From positions 5,270,001-5,334,000 of the forward strand of contig OZ024752.1 in the NCBI GenBank assembly GCA_964016885.1: DNA of 64,000 bases, in the 5' to 3' direction. The notes beneath the pieces are model-generated. The model searched no databases, was not told the origin of the DNA, and was given only the letters and a program-made list of their open reading frames with translations. This DNA is from Eledone cirrhosa (Eukaryota). Numbering within the stretch: position 1 is the first letter of the stretch; each line of letters opens with the position of its first letter. This document shows positions 5,353 to 63,340 of the stretch, in pieces. The position numbers and the translations under genes are program-made.

Positions 5353-6727
5353 ATAATTATTATATTCTAGGTAGAACAGTTGTAAACTTTAAACAAGACA
5401 AGGAAATTATGTACTGGTGTTTGCCAATGGTATTTCACAATTCCTTTAAGTACTCTTGAAAAAGGCAGTAATGTCATCTCAAATTTATAAGAAATACAGT
5501 GATATCGTTTACTATAAATTCATATGTAGCAGCAGTAACCACAAGTTTTGTAGGGTATTTTCCCAGTTAAAGCAAGGGTTGACCTTGGAGATCCCATTAA
5601 AAGCTTCATACTTATCCTATGGTAGTTTTTGAAGCAATGTTTTACTGTTGTATGCCCTGGTGCCAACTCTCTCAGTCACCTCTTATGACATGTAGTCTAT
5701 TTGAAACCAGATGCATACAATCCTTAACATACATTCATATGATGAATAAAACATTCATTTAGTCTGAATTCCCTTTCTAGCAGCAACTCTTTTAATTGCC
5801 TCTTATGTCACACAGGGACATGGTGTACCTATTTCTAAACTAGAAATATATAAAGTTGTACTCAACAAGTATTTATTTCTTATTTTATTGACCCAGGAAG
5901 GATGAAAAAGTAAACTTGACCTTATCATGATTTGAACTCATAATGTAAAGAACGATGGCAATGCTTTTTTTCCCCGTGTTTTTCTGATTCTGCCAATCAT
6001 TCGTTGATATTGATACTAAATATTGATTGATTGATTTCTGTCCTTTGGCTGAAGTAATAATTATTTTTTATCATAAATATTTTTTCACATCAGTCATTAA
6101 TCACATAAGTACCTGTATCCAAGGTATGCACTCACAAGAGGTACCAACCTTTAGCTTACAATTAAAGTGAATCATTTATTCGGCTATATGTTCTGTTTTA
6201 TTTCTCAATGCAGTCTCAACACTTCACATAAATTATATATTAATGCTAAGAGTTAAATGCAAGCCAACAACAGAATTATTTTTAGCAGCCAAATCACACT
6301 CAAATCATACCCTGCGATTTAAAAAAAAAAAGAAACGAAAAAAGCACATTTGCAATATAGTCTGGGATAGTTTTACAAACAAGATGAGATGATCGCTCTT
6401 AAGACATTTTAAATCCTAAGTCTTATTGATTTAGGTTGACCTGGGACTAAATAAAAACAAAGAGAGCTGAACATCATATCACAACTACATTACCATCACT
6501 ATCCCCATCATCCCCACCATCTCCTACATTGCTGTATGCTGCCCAAATCTCAGCAAAATATTCTTCATTAAACTGCACTAACATTCTGTAAAACTCTATA
6601 CAGTATAGTTACCAACAGCTTACTATGTGAAAGCATATTTATATATTTACTACATTACTTATTTCTGGCTTAGTTTTTGGGGGGTGTTGGGTCAAAAATA
6701 GTAAGGTTGTGAATTTGATTTCCAGAA

Positions 6728-7420
6728 ACCGGCCATATCCAGCTACAATTCTCACTTCAAAGCAGTCATAACCGGCCATATCCAGCTACAATTCTCACTT
6801 CAAAGCAGTCATAACCGGCCATATCCAGCTACAATTCTCACTTCAAAGCAGTCATAACCGGCCATATCCAGCTACAATTCTCACTTCAAAGCAGTCATAA
6901 CCGGCCATATCCAGCTACAATTCTCACTTCAAAGCAGTCATAACCGGCCATATCCAGCTACAATTCTCACTTCAAAGCAGTCATAACCGGCCATATCCAG
7001 CTACAATTCTCACTTCAAAGCAGTCATAACCGGCCATATCCAGCTACAATTCTCACTTCAAAGCAGTCATAACCGGCCATATCCAGCTACAATTCTCACT
7101 TCAAAGCAGTCATAACCGGCCATATCCAGCTACAATTCTCACTTCAAAGCAGTCATAACCGGCCATATCCAGCTACAATTCTCACTTCAAAGCAGTCATA
7201 ACCGGCCATATCCAGCTACAATTCTCACTTCAAAGCAGTCATAACCGGCCATATCCAGCTACAATTCTCACTTCAAAGCAGTCATAACCGGCCATATCCA
7301 GCTACAATTCTCACTTCAAAGCAGTCATAACCGGCCATATCCAGCTACAATTCTCACTTCAAAGCAGTCATAACCGGCCATATCCAGCTACAATTCTCAC
7401 TTCAAAGCAGTCATAACCGG
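6728..7420. repeat. 43-bp minisatellite, 16 identical units, inside a piggyBac-type MITE (MITE continues to ~7553)
   Basis: Unit ACCGGCCATATCCAGCTACAATTCTCACTTCAAAGCAGTCATA; CCGG recurs from 6729 to 7417 (16 x 43). Confidence 0.97.
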
Positions 7421-7739
7421 CAGCTCATTCAACATTAAGGCACTCTCAAAATAAATAATATTAAAATTTCATAGATTCGATATTATGTGAGATGAAGCCT
7501 TTACAGTGAAAATACAATAGTAAATATAGAGTAATGTAAATATTAAAGGGTTGAATAGCACACTTTATTTCATGTTATTTCAGTCCAATCAGCTGAAAAA
7601 AGTGTGTACCAGCAGCAGCTGGGATTAACCCTATGACAAGCTGCCATCCCATCCACAAGAGAGAGTCTTTTGCTCTCAGTCACAATGAAAACAGGAGAAG
7701 CTTTGTCTAGATAAGCTTTTCTGTTATGGGCAGACTTTG

Positions 7740-11571: not shown

Positions 11572-13437
11572 GCGGGGAAGGCAACCAGTCCATCGGATAT
11601 AGCTGCCGAGATGCTGAAGGCTTCTGGGTCGGTATGTCACACTATAACCACACATATTGTTAACCAGGTAATACTAGGTGTCACACCAAAGGATTGGTGC
11701 AGCAGCATCATTGTCAACTACTACAAAGGTAAAGGAGATGCATTAGATAGAGGAAACTATAGAGGTATAAAGCTGATGGACCAGGTCATGAAAGTAACAG
11801 AAAGAGTTATAGCACAGTTGATTAGGGACCGGGTGAAACTAGATGAGATGCAATTTGGGTTTGTGCCAGGAAGAGGCACCACTGATGCCCTCTTCCTTGT
11901 GAGGCAGTTACAGGAAAAGTACCTAGCTAAAAGTAAGCCACTCTACCTGGCATTCATCGATCTCAAGAAAGCCTTTGACAGAGTTCCCCGTGCTGGTGGG
12001 GTCTTAGAAATCTAGGAGTAGTTGAATGGCTTGTGAAAGCTGTACAAGCCATGTATAGGGGAGCAGTCAGCAAAGTTAGGATTAGCAATGAGTATAGCGA
12101 GGAATTTAGCGTACAGGTTGGGGTCCACCAGGGCTCTGTTCTTAGCCCCCTCCTGTTCATCATAGTCCTGCAGGCAATAACAGAGGAGTTTAAGACCGGA
12201 TGCCCATGGGAACTCCTGTATGCTGATGACCTCACACTTATAACTGAATCTATGGTAGAACTAGAGAAGAAATGCCAAACTGGGAAGCAGGGACTAGAAA
12301 GATAGGGTCTCAAAGTCAACCTGACAAAGACTAAGGCCCTTGTAAGTAGACGAGAAAACAGAACCCAGATCCCCTCAGGGAAATGACCTTCCTCAGTATG
12401 TAGGAAAGGTGTAGGTAGGAACTCCATTCTCTGCCCCAAATGCAAACAATGGGTACACAAGAGATGTAGCGGGATCTCAGGAGGCTTAACTAGGAATGTA
12501 GGCTTCACATGCAGCAGCTGTGCTGGGACAGCAATCAGCAAACAGCCACAGGAAACAAGTACCACCAATCTCTGGGAGGGCTCTGTAGAAACAGTAGACA
12601 GCTTCTACTACCTAGGTGACCAAATTAGCAGCGAAGGTGGGTGTTCAGAAAGTACAGTAACTAGGGTAAGAACGGGATGGAAGAAGTTCAGGGAGCTACT
12701 GCCACTGCTAGCTGCAAAAGGCTTTTCCCTCAAAATGAAAGGCAGACTGTATGATGCGTGTATACGAACAGCAATGTTACATGGTAGTGAGACCTGGGCA
12801 CTGACTGTGGAAGACTTACGTAGATTAGAAAGAAACAAAGCCTGCATGCTCCGATGGATATGTAATAGTAATATATGCGAACGGAAAAGCATAAACGAAT
12901 TGAGGGAGAGATTGAGCATAAGAGGAATCAAATGCTGTGTGCAGGAGAGGCGATTGCGTTGGTATGGTCATGTGATGCGTATGAAGGATGACAGCTGCAT
13001 AAAAAGGCGCAGAGCACTAGAAGTCGATGGAAACTGCGGAGTGGGGAGACCCAAGAAGACCTGGGATGAGGTGATAAAAGCCGACCTTACCCAATTACAC
13101 CTCTCAAAGGCAATGACACATGACCGTGACTTCTGGCATCACGCAGTAATACAGAAGACCCGACCCCCCCACGAGTACAAGCTGAAGCATATAGACAATA
13201 CGCCCCCACACCCTCCCACTGCAAAGTGGTCGTGGAGGTGCCATGGCAAAAAACCACCCAGCACTCACTGTATGTTGGATGTGGAGGCGCCACGGAAAAA
13301 AAGCACCCAGCACTCACTGTAAATGAGGTTGGTGTTAGGAAGGGCATCCAGCTGTAGAAATCAAGCCAGAATCAGTTCCCGTCCCACCCTTGCAAGCAGG
13401 GAAAAGCGGACGTAAAAATGATGATGATGATGATGAT
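11572..13437 (+). mobile_element. RTE LINE (family A), 5'-truncated RT plus 3' UTR, frameshifted
   Basis: [65 protein letters not shown]; (TGA)n tail. Confidence 0.95.
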
Positions 13438-13831
13438 AGCTTATAAAATAGGGTGAAGACCCTTAAAAGACAGAAAAAGAAGTTGCCATCGGCCACTGTC
13501 TTTATACTCATATATATATATAAATAAATGATATATTATGAACAGTGGCTTATAAGTAACAGGACAGTCAATGCATTATTATTGCAAGGGTCACAATTTA
13601 ATGAGGAATGGCGTCAGCTTTTCAAAGACTTACTTTAATTATATTTTTATTTTTTCAACAATTTTTGTTTGATGTATTTATAATTTCTTACTGTATGGCC
13701 AGAATTTTAGTAAATACTATCATTCATACACTGTTCACTTTCCTGACATTTGTACATTATTCTATGTACTACATATGCATCTTAAATAAATAAAGAAAGA
13801 AATCATTATTATTATTATTTGTAATTATAAA

Positions 13832-14001: not shown

Positions 14002-14099
14002 TGTATTGTTGTTGTTGTCAGTGATCACCATATCAAGGAACTCTGAAAAGAAACCCATCATCCAATTTGCTCTTTTTTTAAAGATATTTTTGTTTGTGA

Positions 14100-15570
14100 T
14101 TTATAATACATTAAAGGTCTCATTATATTGTTATCTATCCATTACTGAATAAAATATAAGTAAGCTATAGAAAAAATGTATAGTTGTTTACAGGTCTAAT
14201 TAGTTAAATCTCTTGTGTTATTAATATACATTATACTATGTTATAAGTGAATCCCTTATATATAATGCTATTAATTTATATATTTAATTATAAATATAAT
14301 TTATTTTCCTATAATACATTAAAGGTCTCATTATATTATTATCTATCCATTACTGAATATAATATTGGTAAGCTATAGTGGTTATATGAAATGGTGGTAA
14401 TTTTATGTTTATTTCTAATAGTTATTGTAGAGTATAAAGTTAGAGATAAATAGGAGTTAAGTAGAGGAATGAGCTGATCATAGAGTGTGATGGTATAGGG
14501 GTAATTATATGCTGATAAGACCTAGAGGTGAAGTGTTAATGGTGGTGAGGAATTCAGATCTGACATTCTTATGTACTAGTAGCTATGTTTAAAGCTATGG
14601 AAAGAGTGTCGGGGGTAGTGCTGGCACATGGAAAAAACCTCTGATTTCCTATTTAGGAGGTCTAGTTTAGAATAGATTATAGTGTGGGTCTCTAGAAGAC
14701 AGAGGTTACACAATTTATTCGGTAGTTTATACAATGCGGCCCTATCTATTACTTCCCATTGAAGTATATATCTATTCCTAGTTTTCAAAGAGTGTATGTA
14801 GCTAGATGAAGAAGTGGAGTTGGCTAGATTGCGATTTTTGAAAGTGTGGAGATGCGAGTTATATCTCGTCTTGAAGCAGTTCGAAGTTGAACCGATATAT
14901 GTTTTAGAAGAGTTGTTTGTGTTGACCGTGCATGAGTAAATGATTTCTTTGATTAAGCAATTTCTACCTAAGGGGCAAGTTCTATTTGTTATACAGTTAC
15001 AGTTATTCTGGTTGTTTGCTTGCCGGTTACTATGTTGTGTAGATGTCTGGTTGCTAGGGATAGCATTAGGGTAATGATGGTTGTCGTTCCCATTGTTATT
15101 AATTTCATTAGTGCTATTACCATTATTATTATTGCTACTAGAATTTTCTGGTACTATGTTGCTCTGTACGTTTACCCCCCTGCTGTGATTTAATTAGTTA
15201 GAAATAATTATTAATCTTCCTTTTATTACTACTAGCTATATGGTATGCGATGTGAGGTGTGGTAGGGTAATAGATTTTAATGGTATTTTTATTGATAAGA
15301 TTATGGTATTTGTGGCCGGCTGGGAAGTTTTTTTCCAGTATTGAGAAGAAAACCCTAGGCAAGTTGGTAGAGATGTTTAGATTGAAAGGGGGATTGAAGA
15401 ATGTATTAGTTCTTCTATTTTTGTTTTTTGTAATGTTATTTGAGGTATTTGTATTTCTATTTATATTATTATTTTGGTGTTTATTCTGGTGCGAGTTAAG
15501 TTTGATGTTACCCTTGGTATTAGAGTTAGAGTGGCTAGTACTTTTATTATTTTTCCTCATTTTTCCTATA
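14100..15570 (-). mobile_element. Penelope-like element (Neptune-type), linker + GIY-YIG endonuclease + 3' region, 5'-truncated
   Basis: Minus strand reads FFNPPFNLNISTN...NKNTIKIYY, then CNCITNRTCPLGRNCLIKEIIYSCTV...KTYIGSTSNCFKTRYNSH...CNLCLLE...LLNRKSEVFSMCQH. Confidence 0.9.
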
Positions 15571-25063: not shown

Positions 25064-25323
25064 TATAAGTATAAAGAATGGTGTAATCATATGTAGAGAT
25101 GCTATAAAATAGGGTGACGATCCTTAAAGACAAGAAAAAGAAGTTGCCATCAGCTGCTATGAGGAATTGAGCCCCATATCTCCCAGATACCAGCTATCTG
25201 GGGTTCAAATCCTCATAGCAGCTGATGGCAACTTCTTTTTCCATCTTTTAAGGGTTTTCACCCTATTTTATAAGCTATTTTATAGCATCTCTACACATGA
25301 GCACACCATCCTTTATACTTATA
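25064..25323. repeat. 260-bp foldback element with tRNA B-box-like arms
   Basis: 25064-~25175 is the reverse complement of ~25195-25323. Contains GGGGTTCAAATCC. A related arm lies at 13437-13500. Confidence 0.85.
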
Positions 25324-31516: not shown

Positions 31517-34500
31517 GTTGTTTCTTCGCTCAACTTCTAATGCTTGAGATGTATTACAGTGTTAGCTGTTCACTACCAGTATCACAGTGTTGTTCACTAC
31601 CAGTATTACAGTGTTAGCTGTTCACTACCAGTATTACAGTGTTAGCTGTTCACTACCAGTATTACAGTGTTAGCTGTTCACTACCAGTATTACAGTGTTA
31701 GCTGTTCACTACCAGTGTTACAGTGTTAGCTGTTCACTACCAGTGTTACAGTGTTAGCTGTTCACTACCAGTGTTACAGTGTTAGCTGTTCACTACCAGT
31801 ATTACAGTGTTAGCTGTTCACTACCAGTATTACAGTGTTAGCTGTTCACTACCAGTGTTACAGTGTTAGCTGTTCACTACCAGTATTACAGTGTTAGCTG
31901 TTCACTACCAGTATTACAGTGTTAGCTGTTCACTACCAGTATTACAGTGTTGTTCACTGCCAGTATTACAGTGTTAGCTGTTCATTACCAGTATTACAGT
32001 GTTGTTCACTGCCAGTATTACAGTGTTAGCTGTTCACTACCAGTATTACAGTGTTAGCTGTTCACTACTAGTATTACAGTGTTAGCTGTTCACTACCAGT
32101 ATTACAGTGTTGTTCACTGCCAGTATTACAGTGTTAGCTGTTCACTACCAGTATTACAGTGTTAGCTGTTCACTACCAGTATTACAGTGTTAGCTGTTCA
32201 CTACCAGTATTACAGTGTTGTTCACTGCCAGTATTACAGTGTTAGCTGTTCACTACCAGTATTACAGTGTTGTTCACTGCCAGTATTACAGTGTTAGCTG
32301 TTCACTGCCAGTATTACAGTGTTAGCTGTTCACTACCAGTATTACAGTGTTAGCTGTTCACTACCAGTATTACAGTGTTAGCTGTTCACTACCAGTATTA
32401 CAGTGTTGTTCACTACCAGTGTTACAGTGTTAGCTGTTCACTACCAGTATTACAGTGTTAGCTGTTCACTACCAGTATTACAGTGTTGTTCACTACCAGT
32501 GTTACAGTGTTAGCTGTTCACTACCAGTGTTACAGTGTTAGCTGTTCACTACCAGTATTACAGTGTTAGCTGTTCACTACCAGTATTACAGTGTTAGCTG
32601 TTCACTACCAATATTACAGTGTTAGCTGTTCACTACCAGTATTACAGTGTTGTTCACTACCAGTATTACAGTGTTAGCTGTTCACTACCAGTGTTACAGT
32701 GTTAGCTGTTCACTACCAGTGTTACAGTGTTAGCTGTTCACTACCAGTGTTACAGTGTTAGCTGTTCACTACCAGCATTACAGTGTTAGCTGTTCACTAC
32801 CAGTGTTACAGTGTTAGCTGTTCACTACCAGTATTACAGTGTTAGCTGTTCACTACCAGTATTACAGTGTTATCTGTTCACTACCAGTATTACAGTGTTA
32901 GCTGTTCACTACCAGTATTACAGTGTTAGCTGTTCACTACCAGTATTACAGTGTTAGCTGTTCACTACCAATATTACAGTGTTAGCTGTTCACTACCAGT
33001 ATTACAGTGTTGTTCACTACCAGTATTACAGTGTTAGCTGTTCACTACCAGTGTTACAGTGTTAGCTGTTCACTACCAGTATTACAGTGTTAGCTGTTCA
33101 CTACCAGTGTTACAGTGTTAGCTGTTCACTACCAATATTACAGTGTTGTTCACTACCAGTATTACAGTGTTAGCTGTTCACTACCAGTATTACAGTGTTA
33201 GCTGTTCACTACCAGTATTACAGTGTTAGCTGTTCACTACCAGTGTTACAGTGTTAGCTGTTCACTACCAGTATTACAGTGTTAGCTGTTCACTACCAGT
33301 ATTACAGTGTTAGCTGTTCACTACCAGTGTTACAGTGTTAGCTGTTCACTACCAGTATTACAATGTTAGCTGTTCACTACCAGTATTACAGTGTTATCTG
33401 TTCACTACCAGTATTACAGTGTTAGCTGTTCACTACCAGTATTACAGTGTTAGCTGTTCACTACCAGTATTACAGTGTTAGCTGTTCACTACCAATATTA
33501 CAGTGTTAGCTGTTCACTACCAGTATTACAGTGTTGTTCACTACCAGTATTACAGTGTTAGCTGTTCACTACCAGTGTTACAGTGTTAGCTGTTCACTAC
33601 CAGTATTACAGTGTTAGCTGTTCACTACCAGTGTTACAGTGTTAGCTGTTCACTACCAGTATTACAGTGTTGTTCACTACCAGTATTACAGTGTTAGCTG
33701 TTCACTACCAGTATTACAGTGTTAGCTGTTCACTACCAGTATTACAGTGTTAGCTGTTCACTACCAGTGTTACAGTGTTAGCTGTTCACTACCAGTATTA
33801 CAGTGTTAGCTGTTCACTACCAGTATTACAGTGTTAGCTGTTCACTACCAGTGTTACAGTGTTAGCTGTTCACTACCAGTATTACAGTGTTGTTCACTAC
33901 CAGTGTTACAGTGTTAGCTGTTCACTACCAGTATTACAGTGTTAGCTGTTCACTACCAGTATTACAGTGTTAGCTGTTCACTACCAGTATTACAGTGTTA
34001 GCTGTTCACTACCAGTATTACAGTGTTAGCTGTTCACTACCAGTGTTACAGTGTTAGCTGTTCACTACCAGTGTTACAGTGTTGTTCACTACCAGTATTA
34101 CAGTGTTGTTCACTACCAGTATTACAGTGTTAGCTGTTCACTACCAGTATTACAGTGTTAGCTGTTCACTACCAGTATTACAGTGTTGTTCACTACCAGT
34201 ATTACAGTGTTAGCTGTTCACTACCAGTATTACAGTGTTAGCTGTTCACTACCAGTATTACAGTGTTAGCTGTTCACTACCAGTATTACAGTGTTAGCTG
34301 TTCACTACCAGTATTACAGTGTTAGCTGTTCACTACCAGTGTTACAGTGTTAGCTGTTCACTACCAGTGTTACAGTGTTGTTCACTACCAGTATTACAGT
34401 GTTGTTCACTACCAGTATTACAGTGTTAGCTGTTCACTACCAGTATTACAGTGTTAGCTGTTCACTACCAGTATTACAGTGTTGTTCACTACCAGTATTA

Positions 34501-37215
34501 CAGTGTTAGCTGTTCACTACCAGTATTACAGTGTTAGCTGTTCACTACCAGTATTACAGTGTTAGCTGTTCACTACCAGTGTTACAGTGTTAGCTGTTCA
34601 CTACCAGTATTACAGTGTTAGCTGTTCACTACCAGTGTTACAGTGTTAGCTGTTCACTACCAGTATTACAGTGTTGTTCACTACCAGTGTTACAGTGTTA
34701 GCTGTTCACTACCAGTATTACAGTGTTAGCTGTTCACTACCAGTATTACAGTGTTAGCTGTTCACTACCAGTATTACAGTGTTAGCTGTTCACTACCAGT
34801 ATTACAGTGTTAGCTGTTCACTACCAGTGTTACAGTGTTAGCTGTTCACTACCAGTGTTACAGTGTTAGCTGTTCACTACCAGTATTACAGTGTTAGCTG
34901 TTCACTACCAGTATTACAGTGTTAGCTGTTCACTACCAGTATTACAGTGTTAGCTGTTCACTACCAGTGTTACAGTGTTAGCTGTTCACTACCAGTGTTA
35001 CAGTGTTAGCTGTTCACTACCAGTGTTACAGTGTTAGCTGTTCACTACCAGTGTTACAGTGTTAGCTGTTCACTACCAGTATTACAGTGTTAGCTGTTCA
35101 CTACCAGTGTTACAGTGTTAGCTGTTCACTACCAGTGTTACAGTGTTAGCTGTTCACTACCAGTATTACAGTGTTAGCTGTTCACTACCAGTATTACAGT
35201 GTTAGCTGTTCACTACCAGTGTTACAGTGTTAGCTGTTCACTACCAGTGTTACAGTGTTAGCTGTTCACTACCAGTGTTACAGTGTTAGCTGTTCACTAC
35301 CAGTGTTACAGTGTTAGCTGTTCACTACCAGTGTTACAGTGTTAGCTGTTCACTACCAGTATTACAGTGTTAGCTGTTCACTACCAGTATTACAGTGTTA
35401 GCTGTTCACTACCAGTGTTACAGTGTTAGCTGTTCACTACCAGTGTTACAGTGTTAGCTGTTCACTACCAGTGTTACAGTGTTAGCTGTTCACTACCAGT
35501 ATTACAGTGTTAGCTGTTCACTACCAGTATTACAGTGTTAGCTGTTCACTACCAGTATTACAGTGTTAGCTGTTCACTACCAGTATTACAGTGTTAGCTG
35601 TTCACTACCAGTATTACAGTGTTGTTCACTACCAGTATTACAGTGTTAGCTGTTCACTACCAGTATTACAGTGTTAGCTGTTCACTACCAGTGTTACAGT
35701 GTTAGCTGTTCACTACCAGTGTTACAGTGTTAGCTGTTCACTACCAGTATTACAGTGTTAGCTGTTCACTACCAATATTACAGTGTTAGCTGTTCACTAC
35801 CAGTATTACAGTGTTAGCTGTTCACTACCAATATTACAGTGTTAGCTGTTCACTACCAGTATTACAGTGTTAGCTGTTCACTACCAGTATTACAGTGTTA
35901 GCTGTTCACTACCAATATTACAGTGTTAGCTGTTCACTACCAGTATTACAGTGTTAGCTGTTCACTACCAATATTACAGTGTTAGCTGTTCACTACCAGT
36001 ATTACAGTGTTAGCTGTTCACTACCAATATTACAGTGTTAGCTGTTCACTACCAGTATTACAGTGTTAGCTGTTCACTACCAGTATTACAGTGTTAGCTG
36101 TTCACTACCAATATTACAGTGTTAGCTGTTCACTACCAGTGTTACAGTGTTAGCTGTTCACTACCAGTATTACAGTGTTAGCTGTTCACTACCAGTATTA
36201 CAGTGTTAGCTGTTCACTACCAGTATTACAGTGTTGTTCACTACCAGTATTACAGTGTTAGCTGTTCACTACCAGTATTACAGTGTTAGCTGTTCACTAC
36301 CAGTGTTACAGTGTTAGCTGTTCACTACCAGTGTTACAGTGTTAGCTGTTCACTACCAGTATTACAGTGTTAGCTGTTCACTACCAATATTACAGTGTTA
36401 GCTGTTCACTACCAGTATTACAGTGTTAGCTGTTCACTACCAGTGTTACAGTGTTAGCTGTTCACTACCAGTGTTACAGTGTTAGCTGTTCACTACCAGT
36501 ATTACAGTGTTAGCTGTTCACTACCAGTATTACAGTGTTAGCTGTTCACTACCAGTGTTACAGTGTTAGCTGTTCACTACCAGTGTTACAGTGTTAGCTG
36601 TTCACTACCAGTGTTACAGTGTTAGCTGTTCACTACCAGTATTACAGTGTTAGCTGTTCACTACCAGTATTACAGTGTTAGCTGTTCACTACCAATATTA
36701 CAGTGTTAGCTGTTCACTACCAGTGTTACAGTGTTAGCTGTTCACTACCAGTATTACAGTGTTAGCTGTTCACTACCAGTATTACAGTGTTAGCTGTTCA
36801 CTACCAATATTACAGTGTTAGCTGTTCACTACCAGTGTTACAGTGTTAGCTGTTCACTACCAGTGTTACAGTGTTAGCTGTTCACTACCAGTATTACAGT
36901 GTTAGCTGTTCACTACCAGTATTACAGTGTTAGCTGTTCACTACCAGTATTACAGTGTTAGCTGTTCACTACCAGTGAACTGAGGTAACAACCCCTTATT
37001 TTTCGAGTACCTTCAGAGTACTCGAGCTGTTCCAAGCAATACTGTTTTTGTGTTCCAATCCATACTGCAATCCCAATTTGTTTAATCTTCTTCTCAACAT
37101 CTCTATTCACTGTTCCCAACACTCCAACTATTATTGGTATTACCAACAACTGTTTCAGTCACCACTACTGCTTAATCTGCCAAGCTAACCTGTCATATCT
37201 ATCATTTTTTTTCTT
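31505..37215 (-). mobile_element. R4/Dong-like LINE 3' fragment (third family) whose 3' UTR is expanded into a 5.4-kb minisatellite
   Basis: 36977-37215 encodes DRYDRLAWQIKQ...VIPIIVGVLGTV. The UTR resumes at 31517-31550 and ends in (TAA)n. Confidence 0.75.
31551..36976. repeat. 28-bp minisatellite (~195 units, with 24-bp deletion variants)
   Basis: Unit GT(A/G)TTACAGTGTTAGCTGTTCACTACCA; some units lack AGCT. Confidence 0.98.
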
Positions 37216-42437: not shown

Positions 42438-42617
42438 AATATATATATATATAAATATATATATATATTAAATTGTTAAATAATATTCAATGATTATGTC
42501 AAAGAATGAGTTTTACAGTAGATTGGAAGCACTCAACGGCAAATAATTTTCAGGAGTTATTATTAAATAAAATAAGTATTAAGTATTAATAAAATAGATG
42601 TTCTTTTGATCAATTAC

Positions 42618-42670
42618 ATTTTATTATACATATTTTGGATGTACAACTGTACGTCCTCATCAGACAAAAT
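42618..42670 (-). ncRNA. Decayed minimal hammerhead (G12->A)
   Basis: ATTTTGT-CTGATGA-GGACGTAC agtt GTACATCC-AAAA-TATGTA-T-A-ATAAAAT. Confidence 0.65.
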
Positions 42671-42887
42671 ATAATGATACATGACATATCCTGAGATGTT
42701 AAATGGTTAAGATTTAATCAAGAACATCTATTTTATTAATACTTATATTTAATCAATATACTTATACTTTAATCAATTTATATATATATATATATATATA
42801 AATATATATATATATTTGACACAACAAAAACAAGATGGCGTAGAACAGAAAAAAGGAGAGGCACAAAAACAAAGAAAAGTATCCCCA

Positions 42888-42930
42888 GTCGCTGAAGAGG
42901 TCACAGAATGTGTGACGAAAGAACTTTGAC
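42888..42930 (+). ncRNA. Partly decayed minimal hammerhead
   Basis: GTCG-CTGAAGA-g-GTCACA gaatg TGTGAC-GAAA-GAAC-T-T-TGAC. Confidence 0.55.
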
Positions 42931-43220
42931 AATATATGAACAATCGTCTGGTTGTGGAACCAACCAACCAACCGGAAATTTATAAATTCCTAAATTTATA
43001 AATTTAATTCATAGTAAATTGAAGTGAGAGCAACTGGTGCGTGTGTTTCTTATTGGCAACATGACCCTCCCAAAGCATAACAATATCGGTTTCAACACAC
43101 GTTTTCAGATAAAGAATCTTGCTAAACAAATTCAGAAACGAAATATATATATATATATATACATGTATATATATGTAAATATATATGTATGTAAATATAT
43201 ATATATATATATATATGTAA

Positions 43221-44676: not shown

Positions 44677-47600
44677 CTTGAGTAGTAGAATTAATGTTAC
44701 CTGGTTTAACCCCACCACCTGGCCCTTGTGTAGTAGAATTAATGTTACCAGGTTTAACCCCACCACCTGGCCCTTGGGTAGTAGAATTAATGTTACCAGG
44801 TTTAACCCCACCACCTGGCCCTTGAGTAGTAGAATTAATGTTACCTGGTTTAACCCCACCACCTGGCCCTTGGGTAGTAGAATTAATGTTACCAGGTTTA
44901 ACCCCACCACCTGGCCCTTGGGTAGTAGAATTAATGTTACCAGGTTTAACCCCACCACCTGGCCCTTGGGTAGTAGAATTAATGTTACCAGGTTTAACCC
45001 CACCACCTGGCCCTTGGGTAGTAGAATTAATGTTACCAGGTTTAACCCCACGACCTGGCCCTTGGGTAGTAGAATTAATGTTACCAGGTTTAACCCCACC
45101 ACCTGGCCCTTGGGTAGTAGAATTAATGTTACCAGGTTTAACCCCACCACCTGGCCCTTGAGTAGTAGAATTAATGTTACCAGGTTTAACCCCACCACCT
45201 GGCCCTTGAGTAGTAGAATTAATGTTACCAGGTTTAACCCCACCACCTGGCCCTTGGGTAGTAGAATTAATGTTACCAGGTTTAACCCCACGACCTGGCC
45301 CTTGTGTAGTAGAATTAATGTTACCAGGTTTAACCCCACGACCTGGCCCTTGGGTAGTAGAATTAATGTTACCAGGTTTAACCCCACGACCTGGCCCTTG
45401 GGTAGTAGAATTAATGTTACCAGGTTTAACCCCACCACCTGGCCCTTGGGTAGTAGAATTAATGTTACCAGGTTTAACCCCACCACCTGGCCCTTGGGTA
45501 GTAGAATTAATGTTACCAGGTTTAACCCCACGACCTGGCCCTTGTGTAGTAGAATTAATGTTACCAGGTTTAACCCCACGACCTGGCCCTTGGGTAGTAG
45601 AATTAATGTTACCAGGTTTAATCCCACGACCTGGCCCTTGGGTAGTAGAATTAATGTTACCAGGTTTAACCCCACCACCTGGCCCTTGGGTAGTAGAATT
45701 AATGTTACCAGGTTTAACCCCACCACCTGGCCCTTGGGTAGTAGAATTAATGTTACCAGGTTTAACCCCACGACCTGGCCTTTGGGTAGTAGAATTAATG
45801 TTACCAGGTTTAACCCCACCACCTGGCCCTTGGGTAGTAGAATTAATGTTACCAGGTTTAACCCCACCAACTGGCCCTTGGGTAGTAGAATTAATGTTAC
45901 CAGGTTTAACCCCACCACCTGGCCCTTGGGTAGTAGAATTAATGTTACCAGGTTTAACCCCACCACCTGGCCCTTGTGTAGTAGAATTAATGTTACCAGG
46001 TTTAACCCCACCACCTGGCCCTTGGGTAGTAGAATTAATGTTACCAGGTTTAACCCCACCACCTGGCCCTTGTGTAGTAGAATTAATGTTACCAGGTTTA
46101 ACCCCACCACCTGGCCCTTGGGTAGTAGAATTAATGTTACCTGGTTTAACCCCACCACCTGGCCCTTGGGTAGTAGAATTAATGTTACCTGGTTTAACCC
46201 CACCACTTGGCCCTTGGGTAGTAGAATTAATGTTACCTGGTTTAACCCCACCACTTGGCCCTTGGGTAGTAGAATTAATGTTACCTGGTTTAACCCCACC
46301 ACTTGGCCCTTGGGTAGTAGAATTAATGTTACCTGGTTTAACCCCACCAATTGGCCTTTGGGGAGTAGAATTAATGTTACCTGGTTTAACCCCACCACTT
46401 GGCCCTTGGGTAGTAGAATTAATGTTACCTGGTTTAACCCCACCACTTGGCCCTTGGGTAGTAGAATTAATGTTACCTGGTTTAACCCCACCAATTGGCC
46501 TTTGGGTAGTAGAATTAATGTTACCTGGTTTAACCCCACCACTTGGCCCTTGGGTAGTAGAATTAATGTTACCTGGTTTAACCCCACCACTTGGCCCTTG
46601 GGTAGTAGAATTAATGTTACCTGGTTTAACCCCACCACTTGGCCCTTGGGTAGTAGAATTAATGTTACCTGGTTTAACCCCACCACTTGGCCCTTGGGTA
46701 GTAGAATTAATGTTACCTGGTTTAACCCCACCACTTGGCCCTTGGGTAGTAGAATTAATGTTACCTGGTTTAACCCCACTACCTGGTCCTTGGGTAGTAG
46801 AATTAATGTTACCTGGTTTAACCCCACTATTTGGCCCTTGGATGGTAGAATTAATGTTACCTGGTTTAACCCCACTACCTGGTCCTTGGGTAGTAGAATT
46901 AATGTTACCTGGTTTAACCCCACCACTTGGCCCTTGGGTAGTAGAATTAATGTTACCTGGTTTAACCCCACTACTTGGCCCTTGGGTAGTAGAATTAATG
47001 TTACCTGGTTTAACCCCACTACCTGGTCCTTGGGTAGTAGAATTAATGTTACCTGGTTTAACCCCACTATTTGGCCCTTGGATGGTAGAATTAATGTTAC
47101 CTGGTTTAACCCCACCACTTGGCCCTTGGGTAGTAGAATTAATGTTACCTGGTTTAACCCCACCACCTGGCCCTTGGGTAGTAGAATTAATGTTACCTGG
47201 TTTAACCCCACCACTTGGCCCTTGGGTAGTAGAATTAATGTTACCGGGTTAACCCCACCACTTGGCCCTTGGGTAGTAGAATTAATGTTACCTGGTTTAA
47301 CCCCACCACCTGGCCCTTGGGTAGTAGAATTAATGTTACCTGGTTTAACCCCACCACTTGGCCCTTGGGTAGTAGAATTAATGTTACCTGGTTTAACCCC
47401 ACTACTTTGCCCTTGGCTAGTAGAATTAATGTTACCTGGTTTAAACCCACTACTTGGCCCTTGGGTAGTAGAATTAATTGTTTCTACTTTTGGCACAAGG
47501 CCAGCAATTACCCAGTGCATTACTGGTACTTTATTTTATCGACCTTGTAAGGATGAAAGGCAAAGTTAACCTCGGCGGGATTTGAACTCAGAATGACAAG

Positions 47601-50600
47601 GGCTGTAACTCTATGAGTCAAAGCATGGCGTCCGACCCTCTACAGATACTGCCAATCCACCGGTTACCTGGTTTAACCCCACCACTTGGCCCTTGGGTAG
47701 TAGAATTAATGTTACCGGGTTTAACCCCACACTTGGCCCTTGGGTAGTAGAATTAATGTTACCTGGTTTAACCCCACCACTTGGCCCTTGGGTAGTAGAA
47801 TTAATGTTACCTGGTTTAACCCCACCACTTGGCCCTTGGGTAGTAGAATTAATGTTACCGGGTTTAACCCCACCACTTGGCCCTTGGGTAGTAGAATTAA
47901 TGTTACCTGGTTTAACCCCACCACTTGGCCCTTGGGTAGTAGAATTAATGTTACCTGGTTTAACCCCACCACTTGGCCCTTGGGTAGTAGAATTAATGTT
48001 ACCGGGTTTAACCCCACCACTTGGCCCTTGGGTAGTAGAATTAATGTTACCTGGTTTAACCCCACCACCTGGCCCTTGGGTAGTAGAATTAATGTTACCT
48101 GGTTTAAACCCACTACTTGGCCCTTGGGTAGTAGAATTAATGTTACCGGGTTTAACCCCACTACCTGGCCCTTGGGTAGTAGAATTAATGTTACCTGGTT
48201 TAACTCCACTACCTGGCCCTTGGGTAGTAGAATTAATGTTACCTGGTTTAACCCCACCACCTGGCCCTTGGGTAGTAGAATTAATGTTACCTGGTTTAAC
48301 CCCACTACCTGGCCCTTGGGTAGTAGAATTAATGTTACCGGGTTTAACCCCACTACCTGGCCCTTGGGTAGTAGAATTAATGTTACCTGGTTTAACCCCT
48401 TTACCTGGCCCTTGGGTAGTAGAATTAATGTTACCTGGTTTAACCCCACTACCTGGCCCTTGGGTAGTAGAATTAATGTTACCTGGTTTAACCCCACCAC
48501 TTGGCCCTTGGGTAGTAGAATTAATGTTACCTGGTTTAACCCCACCACTTGGCCCTTGGGTAGTAGAATTAATGTTACCTGGTTTAACCCCTTTACCTGG
48601 CCCTTGGGTAGTAGAATTAATGTTACCTGGTTTAACCCCACCACCTGGCCCTTGGGTAGTAGAATTAATGTTACCTGGTTTAACCCCACTACCTGGCCCT
48701 TGGGTAGTAGAATTAATGTTACCGGGTTTAACCCCACTACCTGGCCCTTGGGTAGTAGAATTAATGTTACCTGGTTTAACCCCACTACCTGGCCCTTGGG
48801 TAGTAGAATTAATGTTACCGGGTTTAACCCCACTACCTGGCCCTTGGGTAGTAGAATTAATGTTACCTGGTTTAACCCCTTTACCTGGCCCTTGGGTAGT
48901 AGAATTAATGTTACCTGGTTTAACCCCTTTACCTGGCCCTTGGGTAGTAGAATTAATGTTACCTGGTTTAACCCCACTACCTGGCCCTTGGATGGTAGAA
49001 TTAATGTTACCTGGTTTAACCCCACCACCTGGCCCTTGGGTAGTTGAATTAATGTTACCTGGTTTAACCCCACTACCTGGCCCTTGGGTGGTAGAATTAA
49101 TGTTACCTGGTTTAACCCCACCACCTGGCCCTTGGATGGTAGAATTAATGTTACCTGGTTTAACCCCACTACCTGGCCCTTGGGTAGTAGAATTAATGTT
49201 ACCTGGTTTAACCCCACGACCTGGCCCTTGGGTAGTAGAATTAATGTTTCCTGGTTTAACCCCACTACCTGGCCCTTGGGTGGTAGAATTAATGTTACCT
49301 GGTTTAACCCCACCACTTGGCCCTTGGGTAGTAGAATTAATGTTACCTGGTTTAACCCCACCACTTGGCCCTTGGGTAGTAGAATTAATGTTACCTGGTT
49401 TAACCCCACCACTTGGCCCTTGGGTAGTAGAATTAATGTTACCTGGTTTAACCCCACCACTTGGCCCTTGGGTAGTAGAATTAATGTTACCTGGTTTAAC
49501 CCCACTACCTGGCCCTTGGGTAGTAGAATTAATGTTACCGGGTTTAACCCCACTACCTGGCCCTTGGGTAGTAGAATTAATGTTACCGGGTTTAACCCCA
49601 CTACCTGGCCCTTGGGTAGTAGAATTAATGTTACCTGGTTTAACCCCACTACCTGGCCCTTGGGTAGTAGAATTAATGTTACCGGGTTTAACCCCACCAC
49701 CTGGCCCTTGGGTAGTAGAATTAATGTTACCTGGTTTAACCCCTATACCTGGCCCTTGGGTAGTAGAATTAATGTTACCAGGTTTAACCCCACTACCTGG
49801 CCCTTGGGTAGTAGAATTAGTGTTACCAGGTTTAACCCCACCACTTGGCCTTGGGTCGTAGAATTAATGTTACCTGGTTTAACCCCACCACTTGGCCTTG
49901 GGTCGTAGAATTAATGTTACCTGGTTTAACCCCACCACTTGGCCTTGGGTCGTAGAATTAATGTTACCTGGTTTAACCCCACCACCTGGCCCTTGGGTAG
50001 TAGAATTAATGTTACCAGGTTCAACCCCACCACTTGGCCCTTGGGTAGTAGAATTAATGTTACCAGGTTTAACCCCACCACTTGGCCCTTGGGTAGTAGA
50101 ATTAATGTTACCTGGTTTAACCCCACTACTTGGCCCTTGAGTAGTAGAATTAATTTTACCTGGTTTAACCCCACCACCTGGCCCTTGGGTAGTAGAATTA
50201 ATGTTACCTGGTTTAACCCCACTACCTGGCCCTTGGGTAGTAGAATTAATGTTACCTGGTTTAACCCCACCACTTGGCCTTAGGTAGTAGAATTAATGTT
50301 ACCTGGTTTAACCCCACTACCTGGCCCTTGGGTAGTAGAATTAATGTTACCTGGTTTAACCCCACCACTTGGCCTTGGGTAGTAGAATTAATGTTACCTG
50401 GTTTAACCCCACTACCTGGCCCTTGGGTAGTAGAATTAATGTTACCTGGTTTAACCCCACCACTTGGCCTTGGGTAGTAGAATTAATGTTACCTGGTTTA
50501 ACCCCACCACTTGGCCTTGGGTAGTAGAATTAATTTTACCTGGTTTAACCCCACCACCTGGCCCTTGGGTAGTAGAATTAATTTTACCTGGTTTAACCCC

Positions 50601-50939
50601 ACCACCTGGCCCTTGGGTAGTAGAATTAATGTTACCTGGTTTAACCCCACCACCTGGCCCTTGGATGATAGAATTAATGTTACCTGGTTTAACCCCACTA
50701 CCTGGCCCTTGGGTAGTAGAATTAATGTTACCTGGTTTAACCCCACTACTTGGCCCTTGGGTAGTAGAATTAATGTTACCTGGTTTAACCCCACCACCTG
50801 GCCCTTGGGTAGTAGAATTAATGTTACCTGGTTTAACCCCACTACCTGGCCCTTGGGTAGTAGAATTAATGTTACCTGGTTTAACCCCACCACTTGGCCT
50901 TGGGTAGTAGAATTAATGTTACCTGGTTTAACCCCACCA
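44677..50939. repeat. 48-bp minisatellite (~125 units) interrupted by a SINE
   Basis: Unit CTTGGGTAGTAGAATTAATGTTACC(A/T/G)GGTTTAACCCCACCAC(C/T)TGGCC; several 47-bp variants. Confidence 0.98.
47479..47662 (-). mobile_element. SINE family A (short subfamily) inserted in the 48-bp array
   Basis: Splits one unit between AATTAAT and GTTACC. Confidence 0.93.
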
Positions 50940-51994
50940 TCTTGGTCTTGGGTGTCTCTGGCAGACTTTCACTCTGTTGCAAGTATTCATACTAGGTTTC
51001 CTGTTTAAGGATAGCTTTCTCCCTCCTTACGACCACCATCATCAGAGACCCAGAAAATGCTAAAGAGTACTGCCTTCCCCTTCTTCACTAAACAGTAAAA
51101 AATTAAAAAAGATAAACCTTAACGCACCTACATTCACCAGCCCCCTAATCCTTATTGCATGAATACCATATTGTGCATATGAATGAAAAACATCAATCTT
51201 ATAGATGTGCATCTTCCTATGTATAAATAAGAATGTAAAGATGAGCTGCTGCTGCTACTGTTGATGCTGCTGGTGCTGATAGTGAGCAGAAAGGAACCTC
51301 AGAGCTGATCCCAAATATTTCTTAATGTAACTGTGATTTTCTTTTGTTTCTTCTCCCGACCCGCCTTTTTTTTTTTGTAATACCCACTTTTTTTTTTACC
51401 TGGAAGCCTCTCTTTTAAATTCCTTCCATGAAATCTCAGATTGACAACTTCAATGTCACAGCAGGCCGACATTCAGAGTCACTTGAGCAAAATGATTTCA
51501 TAATGATGATAATAATAATAATAATGATGATGATGATGATGCAGGTGGTAACAATGATGATGGTGATGATGATGATGATGGTGATGCTGGTGATGATCAT
51601 GATGATGACCGTGATAAAAATCAATTTTAGATGAGGAACAAAGGTGAAAATGAAGGCAGCCAGGAAAAAAAAAGAATAAAAGAGTTGAAAAAGAATCTAT
51701 GGAAAATTTCCTGCACTTCAGCTTATTTTTTACAATAAATTAAACCAGTAAGATATTGTATATGTCTTTCTATACACACATACACACATACATATTGTAT
51801 ATGTCTTTCTATACACACATACACACATACATATGAATATATATATATATGGAAAAGAAATTGTAAATGCAGCTGGAGTCTTTTAAGAATATTTATTTAT
51901 TTTACTGGTTTCACAGTAAAAGTAAAATTGAGATGGAGGTGGATGTGTTTCTGTTGTGGTTTATCTCGCATCTATTATATATATATATATATAT

Positions 51995-52119
51995 ATACAA
52001 TATATAGAGGGGAAAGACACAGAAGAGTGTGTTTTTCTTTACAGGAATTTCAAACCACCAGCGTGAAAAGAATAAAGAAAAACACACTCTTCTGTGTCTT
52101 TCCCTTCTATATATTGTAT
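51995..52119. repeat. Hairpin, 47-bp arms, 31-nt loop
   Basis: 51995-52041 pairs with 52073-52119, with a single G-T. Confidence 0.9.
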
Positions 52120-60767: not shown

Positions 60768-61651
60768 ATGTGTTTCTTAGGTTTTGCTGTCAAAACCAGC
60801 CAGAACCAATAAGATAACAGTGATTAGTGTGATACTGAGATTGATGTAATCAAATAAAAATCTTTTCCCTATAAAAATTGGACAGCTGCCACAGTAAACC
60901 ATCATTATTATCATATGAATGATCAATTATTATCATTAATTGTTTGGCCATTAAGAATTAATGAGCAAAAGCAATTTGCTTTCAATTTCTACATCAAACC
61001 GGATTATTCTGGATTAGTTTCTGAATATTTATAAGCAATGGTTATTCATTTGTATACAATAAATGAACACATAGTTGTGAACATGAGGTAATTGGCAAAT
61101 ATACAGAATGCTGCATGCAGCTTAAAATCCCATGGTGTATGCTTGCTTTTTATATATATATATATATATATAATTTTGTTTGCTTTTGGTGCTTTTTTTT
61201 TCTTTCTTTTGCTGCATGCCTATATCTATGTATACATATGTACAAATAAACACATATGCTCACATACACACACATATTTCCCTTTCTTTCTCTCTCTCTC
61301 CTCCTCTCTCTGTCTCTGTTTCTCTCTGTCTCTTTCTGTATATATATATATATATATGTGTGTATATATCTCTCTCTCTTTCTTAGTATGTTTTGTTTGT
61401 ACACATGCATACATGTGTGTGTGTGTGTGTGTGTGCGTACGTATAACAATAGTTTGAATAATCTGCAATGTAAGACAGAAAATAATCATTCACAAAGATT
61501 CCCATCCCTATATATATATATATATATGTAGGAGGTGAGTTTGATTGTAGTACAATAAAGCAATGCAGATATCGGATAAGAAGCACTCTACAGTTTGTAG
61601 GACTGGAGTATGCATAATATAAGATCAAAAGATGGTTAAAGGAGTTCCATG

Positions 61652-61722
61652 TATTTTATTATGCGCATTTCAAAGACAAACATCATCATGCAATAACATT
61701 TGTGTTTTCATCAGATAAAACA
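61652..61722 (-). ncRNA. Canonical type-I hammerhead ribozyme (left arm)
   Basis: Reverse complement of 62793-62863. Confidence 0.82.
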
Positions 61723-62792
61723 GGAGAACATGATATGAAGGCTAAAAAACACTTGTGGAGTGCAGTTTTAAATCAACATATGAAAAGTGGTTTTAGATTG
61801 ATGTGTGATATTGGGAAAAAAAATATATATATTTTATTTAGAGAGGGGGGTGGGTGGAAAGGATGAAAGGGAAGGAGATGAGAGGGAGATATGGGTGATA
61901 GAGAGAAAGAGATAGTTTTTATAACTGAGAGGAGATATATTTTTTACATAGAGAGGTTGAAAACCGTTGGAAGATACTGTATAAATTAAAAATTTTGAAA
62001 ATTAACGAAGGGAGGATATGTGCGAGGAAAAAATATTTTATTTAGGGAGGGGGGGGATGAAAAAAGGGGGAGGAGATGAGAGTGAAGGTGGAGAGGGAGA
62101 GATGGGTGATAGAGAGAAAGAGATAGTTTTTATAACTGAGAAAAAGATATATTGTTTTAACATAGAGAGGTTGGGAACCGTTGGAAGATAATGTATAAAT
62201 TAAAGGAATTTGAAAATTAACGAAGGGAAATTATGTATGAAGATAGAGAGAATATTCATCCACAATTATTATTTTTTTCTCTCTATCTTCATACATAATT
62301 TCCCTTCGTTAATTTTCAAATTCCTTTAATTTATACATTATCTTCCAACGGTTCCCAACCTCTCTATGTTAAAACAATATATCTTTTTCTCAGTTATAAA
62401 AACTATCTCTTTCTCTCTATCACCCATCTCTCCCTCTCCACCTTCACTCTCATTTCCACCCCCACCCCCCTCCCTAAATAAAATATTTTTTCCTCGCACA
62501 TATCCTCCCTTCGTTAATTTTCAAAATTTTTAATTTATACAGTATCTTCCAACGGTTTTCAACCTCTCTATGTAAAAAATATATCTCCTCTCAGTTATAA
62601 AAACTATCTCTTTCTCTCTATCACCCATCTCTCCCTCTCATCTCCTTCCCTTTCATCCTTTCCACCCCCCCCCCCCTCTCTAAATAAAATATTTTTTCCC
62701 AATATCACACATCAATCTAAAACCACTTTTCATATGTTGATTTAAAACTGCACTATCAACAAGTGTTTTTTAGCCTTCATATCATGTTCTCC

Positions 62793-62863
62793 TGTTTTAT
62801 CTGATGAAAACACAAATGTTATTGCATGATGATGTTTGTCTTTGAAATGCGCATAATAAAATA
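62793..62863 (+). ncRNA. Canonical type-I hammerhead ribozyme (right arm)
   Basis: TGTTTTAT-CTGATGA-(36-nt stem II)-GAAA-TGCGCA-T-A-ATAAAATA; palindromic stem III ATGCGCAT. Confidence 0.82.
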
Positions 62864-63017
62864 CATGGAACTCCTTTAACCATCTTTTGATCTTATATTA
62901 TATATATATATATGTATACCCCACTCCTACAAACTGTAGAGTGCTTCTTATCCGATATCTGCATTGCTTTATTGTACTACAATAAAACTCACCTCCTACA
63001 TATATATATATATATAT

Positions 63018-63340
63018 ACTCCTTTACTCTTTTACCTATTCCAGCCACCTGGCTGAGGCCATGCTGGGGCACCGCCCTTGTTGCTACATATTCTATCTCC
63101 AGCATGTATTGGCTAGCCATTGGTGCAAGAGGGAGTTCGTTGCTGCAGCCTTTGGTTTACATTCATACCTGTGCTGTGCTGTGGGCTCATCCTGGATCAC
63201 AGAGTGTCAAGATGTTTCTTGTAAATATCCACGTCCACACCATGCAGATCCCTTAAATTTCTTGGCAGCTTGTTGAAGATTTGAGGATCTTTAAACCCCA
63301 GGCTATTGCAATATCTGCTCCAATATTGCTTGTACAGGAT
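63018..63340 (-). mobile_element. CR1-group LINE 3' fragment
   Basis: Diverged homologue of 56064-56370. Confidence 0.8.

Follow-up and report, generated by a model that had tools for sequence, protein, structure and literature searches.

How does an almost perfect inverted repeat of 1.47 kb, with the same hammerhead motif in each arm, come to lie in a run of TA? The sequence-only reading of the window (the whole 64,000-nt stretch of DNA analysed here) had taken it for a foldback element, that is, a unit of its own. Our analysis points instead to what is probably one insertion of the 3′ end of a Penelope-like element (PLE), in which a 748-nt 5′-truncated copy and a 726-nt inverted copy stand head to head in (TA)n. 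The parts of the locus are collected in Table 1.

Alignment of the left arm with the right arm (62277-63000, 724 nt) gave 698 matches, 10 substitutions and five gap runs of 2, 2, 8, 10 and 12 nt; with other gap settings nine substitutions were counted, and BLAST gave 94% over 742 columns. The near-identical arms of about 725 bp with a 24-bp spacer, the tandem duplication of about 205 bp inside each arm, the (TA)9 runs on both sides and the lack of an ORF, all described earlier, were borne out, the stop-to-stop frames inside the palindrome being only 40-82 aa long. The arm differences had been put down to slips and a few substitutions. The few substitutions stood, but the 10-nt indel and two substitutions at 62454-62465 seem to stem from conversion to the sequence of the adjacent repeat unit (family D12) and not from simple slippage. 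Both arms end alike, and the length of any target duplication is unreadable inside (TA)n. The flanks outside the palindrome are not mirrored, and no further copy of the arm was found elsewhere in the 64-kb window. The G content of the region 62253-62731 is 3%.

Table 1. Features of the palindrome locus and their proposed identity (positions in the window)
Feature	Position	Strand	Basis or remark
(TA)9 left flank, target microsatellite	61509-61526		sequence
Left arm, inverted 5′-truncated copy (726 nt), 3′ end outward	61527-62252	-	arm alignment
Left-arm hammerhead, identical to right	61652-61722	-	core CUGAUGA from 61714, predicted cut after A61660
Spacer, 24 bp, family sequence extending the right copy 5′-ward	62253-62276	+	run contigs
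Right copy including spacer (748 nt), 3′ end outward	62253-63000	+	alignment, run contigs
Two tandem units of about 205 bp, pyrimidine-rich, 88% identical, mirrored at 61829-62236	62292-62699	+	likely 3′ UTR
Terminal module of about 270 bp, likely pseudo-LTR	62732-63000	+	depth step; 5′ boundary common to short members at about 62730
Type I hammerhead	62786-62871	+	descriptor match, computed fold
3′-terminal 30 nt or so, 9-bp A/T hairpin, AC-rich end; candidate PLE 'tail'	62968-63000	+	D18, X22 reads
(TA)9 right flank, then unrelated multi-copy repeat	63001-63018		sequence, run contigs

Elsewhere in the window, an older palindrome of about 260 bp (25064-25323; 76% by BLAST) belongs to another repeat family, and the sequence of one of its arms recurs singly near 13430-13490; an imperfect palindrome of about 125 bp (51995-52119) adjoins a TA run. 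Long and highly homogeneous minisatellites were observed at 6727-7421 (43 bp), 31551-36976 (28 bp) and 44677-50953 (48 bp), amid many LINE-like reverse-transcriptase fragments.

We then turned to the hammerhead. The type I descriptor matched only twice within the 64-kb window, with the core CUGAUGA at +62801 and -61714; the two motifs were identical and faced outward, as had been noted before. Among 3000 random arms generated by a first-order Markov model, any descriptor match occurred in two, and a hammerhead with a stem I of at least 8 bp and a stem III of at least 3 bp in none (0/3000). In the right arm, stem I (62793-62800/62856-62863) has 8 bp and a 5-bp outer helix, and the core (62801-62807 and 62844-62847) keeps the conserved CUGANGA, GAAA and UH intact. 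Stem II (62808-62843) consists of three A-U pairs, a C62811-C62840 mismatch and 12 more pairs, while the stem III region is a palindromic 8 nt (62847-62854). Cleavage is predicted after A62855, in agreement with the position proposed earlier. Stem II pairing is kept in two common family alleles, G62818A and G62834A, each of which replaces a G-U pair by A-U.

The motif had been called canonical. This held for the conserved core, but not for the pair 10.1-11.1, which is A10.1-U11.1 and not G-C, nor for the mismatch in stem II, nor for stem III, which is absent in the monomer: the two stem III pairs had a probability of 0.00 in the monomer ensemble, without any stable helix III. When two copies were co-folded, the minimum-energy structure was a double hammerhead with an 8-bp intermolecular stem III, and the energy computed for this duplex was -10.5 kcal/mol. 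Folding of the 101-nt hammerhead region was no better than that of shuffles (z -0.65). Rfam gave no match, and thus no hammerhead, for the 64-kb window at the gathering score; up to E=10 there were 35 matches across 61400-63100, none of them a hammerhead, and the best was miRNA-like and lay at the hairpin centre. These computed structures make the hammerhead one of the dimer type, with an unusual 10.1-11.1 pair; cleavage is predicted only for two sense copies joined by the palindromic stem III. Since the two hammerheads of the palindrome lie on opposite strands, they cannot complete each other in one RNA. Related animal PLE motifs show weak or no cleavage alone (PMC4209133), and one PLE hammerhead requires the element's own protein (PMC11167929). 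We propose that the hammerhead is cargo of the terminal repeat.

At 42600-42950 of the window there are also two unrelated, outward-facing hammerhead-like motifs with TA-rich DNA between them; the core at +42892 has an extra base, G10.1-C11.1 and a weak stem I, and the core at -42663 has a long stem I, with GAAA changed to AAAA.

The arm was also traced in public sequencing runs. Its sequence was present in part in 20 of 24 listed runs, and at least half of the arm words occurred in four. Four of the 24 runs, from three organisms, were aligned to 62200-63340, a range from the inner end of the left arm into the right flank; 62902-63018 was masked, so that the 3′ end was outside view. The family is highly repeated in the three organisms, with 5658 contigs in run X1 matching 62200-63340, flank repeat included. 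In all four runs, depth over the hammerhead region was 4.7-22-fold above that of the sequence just upstream, and the step fell at 62716-62735 in five depth columns. The spacer was found in other copies: an X5 contig covered 62260-62319 with no differences, X1 had a summed contig depth (which is no copy number) of 22,187 across 62239-62277, and X4 and X5 had depth over the spacer and none over 62200-62238. The spacer is therefore ordinary family sequence, and two copies make up the insert, one of 748 nt and an inverted one of 726 nt. At 62269-62308, other copies carry a 40-nt tandem repeat (a joint that 'goes back 40' in 4/4 runs), part of whose unit the spacer resembles. The right flank at 63019-63330 is a multi-copy repeat in all four runs, presumably akin to a common octopus short repeat that it resembles.

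Single positions tied the two arms to each other and to the family. Both carry C at 62840, where the family letter is T in 1,163,539 of 1,166,475 (99.7%) of the X1 depth, in all X4 and X5 depth and in 1190 of 1267 X22 reads, the other 77 being without T. Judging from this shared rare letter, the arms would come from one subfamily and likely from one template, or were converted later. At 62454, 62458 and 62758 the left arm has the family letter and the right arm differs, so the arm differences are genuine changes. In X22, a RAD run, 249 reads had a loose end before 62732 (median 39 nt, agreement 0.6), which resembles the reverse complement of the last 28 nt or so of the element. This suggests a common family form of about 300 bp with inverted ends of about 28 bp, as seen in one RAD library whose reads may come from few loci.

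Taken together, the geometry, the identical 3′ ends, the spacer belonging to the right copy, the shared rare variant and the 3′-heavy depth support one PLE insertion. The locus bears the marks of EN+ PLEs, namely a hammerhead with palindromic helix III near the 3′ end, 5′ truncation and an inverted 5′-truncated copy, as well as the (TA)n target, the last seen at this locus only. The type I hammerhead sits about 200 nt inside a 3′ end adjoining (TA)n, as in Hydra-clade PLEs. The earlier description of a non-coding, PLE-type inverted structure was apt. Membership in the PLEs is read from these non-coding marks. Against it stand a hammerhead without G10.1-C11.1 and without an extra base after A9, both of them usual in the hammerheads of animal PLEs, and ends that also fit Ginger2. 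As depth is 3′-heavy and the spacer continues the family sequence of the right copy, the palindrome likely arose in the course of insertion, rather than moving as a unit of its own. Ten substitutions among 708 aligned positions (1.4%) mark the insertion as recent but not new; its age would be about 2 My if the host is an octopus and the calibration quoted in PMC13282606 (distance 0.09 = 25 My) applies.

We propose the following course for this insertion. A PLE RT/GIY-YIG protein made elsewhere (in trans) would nick the TA run, and cDNA would be primed at the fixed 3′ start of the element, the AC-rich end at 63000. After a halt of synthesis at 62253, the 3′ end of the cDNA would fold back across the 24-nt loop and be extended on itself to the TA run, which in this proposal accounts for the equal length of the TA runs on both sides; the new end would then join the other side by TA pairing. 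Within the PLE insertion, fold-back is the likelier route; twin priming, in which one RNA would be copied from both target strands, is less likely but realistic. The arms are near-equal at a length that few family members reach, suggesting that the second arm began where the first cDNA had ended. However, complementarity at the junction is only about 4 nt of A/T with no further stem, a thin basis for fold-back.

No PLE ORF could be linked to the family. A PLE relic of the window, a decayed 3′ part at 14060-15560 (-), has no DNA similarity to the arm. It contains a GIY-YIG endonuclease frame (14576-15025) with 38% identity over 141 aa to P0005 and a Pfam GIY-YIG match below the cut-off (E=0.009). 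It is preceded by an asparagine-rich stretch like that known from rotifer PLEs; the 3′ region behind it is poor in G and includes a duplicated block of about 70 bp. This remnant at 14.6 kb appears to be of another family than the palindrome; as the P0005 motifs resemble Hydra-clade proteins in the available supplement of PMC8557442, Hydra-like seems a better label for it than Neptune-type.

Among the consensus sequences in the available part of that supplement, no motif match to the palindrome element was found. A Naiad origin, considered from the 'half-core' spacing of 35-50 nt, was rejected, as the 3′ ends of Naiad_Obim, Naiad_Ovul and Naiad_Omin given there were unlike the arm by eye and in a motif search; the 3′ end of Hydra-1_Obim was likewise unlike it by eye or motif search. 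The repeat library in PMC13282606 may already contain the family. A sequence-pattern scan of metagenomes gave three loci, which matched the 21-mer only; it gave no viral loci, and two bacterial genome loci were taken as chance.

Of the other explanations, the one that survives best, although unlikely, is a non-autonomous DNA transposon, Ginger2-like or another TA-targeting element with terminal inverted repeats (TIRs). The form of about 300 bp would then be a MITE with TIRs of about 28 bp, the locus a foldback derivative of two right ends, and the hammerhead captured or a relic. Foldback elements typically have long TIRs with inner tandem repeats, and the 249 X22 reads carry the inverted terminal 28 nt or so immediately before 62732, but their loose-end consensus (agreement 0.6) stems from one RAD library. 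At both ends of the palindrome TGTAG, consistent with TGTNR, lies within ATATAT, a sequence compatible with the Ginger2 target RTATAY and its 4-bp duplication (PMC2836005); yet the end is ambiguous within (TA)n, and only about three informative letters match. The Ginger2 TIRs described in the same text are 45-297 bp long, compared with arms of 726 nt here and about 28 nt in the short form. Moreover, a structurally conserved dimer-type hammerhead in the 3′ position is a PLE trait, and an inverted piece and a tail of 30-40 nt are among the PLE by-products known from PMC8557442.

A related idea, for which we see only a slim chance, concerns the family as a whole. Its main form would be a fixed element of about 300 bp, with TIRs of about 28 bp and a dimer-type hammerhead, that multiplied as a unit in several related species until its copy number was very high, as either a PLE parasite with both identical ends serving as RT starts or the terminal repeat of a PLE now moved by a Ginger2-type cut-and-paste transposase. 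In a narrow literature search, none of the matches listed was a hammerhead-bearing non-autonomous TIR or MITE element.

It is improbable that the 1.47-kb palindrome itself moves, as a foldback family copied whole through RNA. The symmetric ends, the equal TA runs and the intact motifs in both arms would suit it; however, the 5′ two thirds of the arm are 4.7-22-fold shallower than the last 270 bp or so, and no strand change occurred among the best 15 of 24 joints. The depth of X4 and X5 over the spacer with none over 62200-62238 also speaks against it, the spacer being family sequence of the right copy, and a 700-bp hairpin would presumably be a poor RT template. The foldback element of the earlier reading was not supported. 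No more credible, and quite unlikely, is a single copy that was inserted first and made into a palindrome later, through break repair or inverted duplication, with gene conversion between the arms. The shared rare variant and the signs of conversion at 62454-62465 agree with such a history, but the mirror ends exactly at the element end and the TA run with no flank included, and the layout is routine for PLEs. The weakest alternative, an assembly or long-read fold-back artefact, can be dismissed almost entirely, the arm differences having been named before as an argument against it: no independent contig among those listed crosses the palindrome centre into the left arm, but the flanks are unmirrored, the arms differ by multi-base indels, and it is the left arm that holds the family letters at 62454, 62458 and 62758.

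The RNA of the locus was also modelled. In the computed fold of a full-length read-through transcript, 701 pairs formed between the arms and the ribozyme core was paired with the other arm, consistent with the earlier suggestion that such an RNA could form about 700 bp of dsRNA and bury the ribozyme. If the host is a cephalopod, hairpins of about 700 bp could feed its heavy A-to-I editing. As a single locus the palindrome carries little weight, being a clean example of a known PLE insertion layout. A family of such high copy number, whose arms are near-equal and which has subfamily markers and a sharp 5′ boundary, would be suited to separating fold-back from twin priming, and the origin of inverted PLE copies is named as a next task in PMC8557442. 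A ribozyme-bearing MITE, if true, would be a surprise bridging class I and class II; its basis is one RAD library.

Finally, we compared the locus with known systems. Ginger2 DNA transposons (Bao et al. 2010, PMC2836005) share the TGTNR ends and the TATA-type target, but the TIR length of the palindrome is out of their range, and it has no transposase and carries a hammerhead. Animal non-LTR retrozymes (PMC7229834; bioRxiv 10.64898/2026.07.22.740005) are likewise non-coding and AT-rich with a type I hammerhead, and their size range includes the short family form (about 270-300 bp). However, they are head-to-tail arrays with at least two sense ribozymes, whereas the palindrome has one hammerhead per strand and none in the 205-bp units, so a retrozyme array at this locus was ruled out. 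The minimal and dimeric type I hammerheads of animal PLEs (Cervera and de la Pena 2014, PMC4209133) have the same intact core, short palindromic helix III and predicted dimer activity, and dual motifs on opposite strands, 100-700 bp apart in Schistosoma; here, by contrast, there is no G10.1-C11.1 and no extra base after A9, and helices I and II are longer.

The closest likeness was found in the insertions of EN+ PLEs, especially those of the Hydra clade (Craig et al. 2021, PMC8557442; Arkhipova et al. 2013, PMC3846280). PLE insertions often lie in (TA)n and possess a tail of 30-40 bp, with an inverted 5′-truncated copy at their 5′ end (PMC8557442), and head-to-head copies are their most frequent arrangement, read as self-priming (PMC3846280). 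A purified PLE protein cuts AT-rich DNA, for which it has a preference; its synthesis begins in an AC-rich stem-loop, and both strands are extended from one internal start (PMC11167929). The supplement of PMC8557442 includes octopus PLEs of the Hydra clade and of Naiad with (TA)n targets. In most table rows of that supplement the hammerhead core of Hydra-clade PLEs lies about 100-200 nt from the end, and Penelope-13_HM, which has a (TA)n target, contains a 966-nt inverted copy and an identical hammerhead on either strand. The layout of the palindrome, including twin opposite-strand hammerheads in (TA)n, is thus already published for PLEs. The locus shares with these insertions the head-to-head copies, the identical outward hammerheads 100-200 nt from the 3′ end, the (TA)n target and the 5′ truncation. 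It differs from them in its much longer stem II of 15 bp, whose first pair is A-U, and in that both copies are truncated before any ORF and almost equal, which makes the whole insert palindromic.
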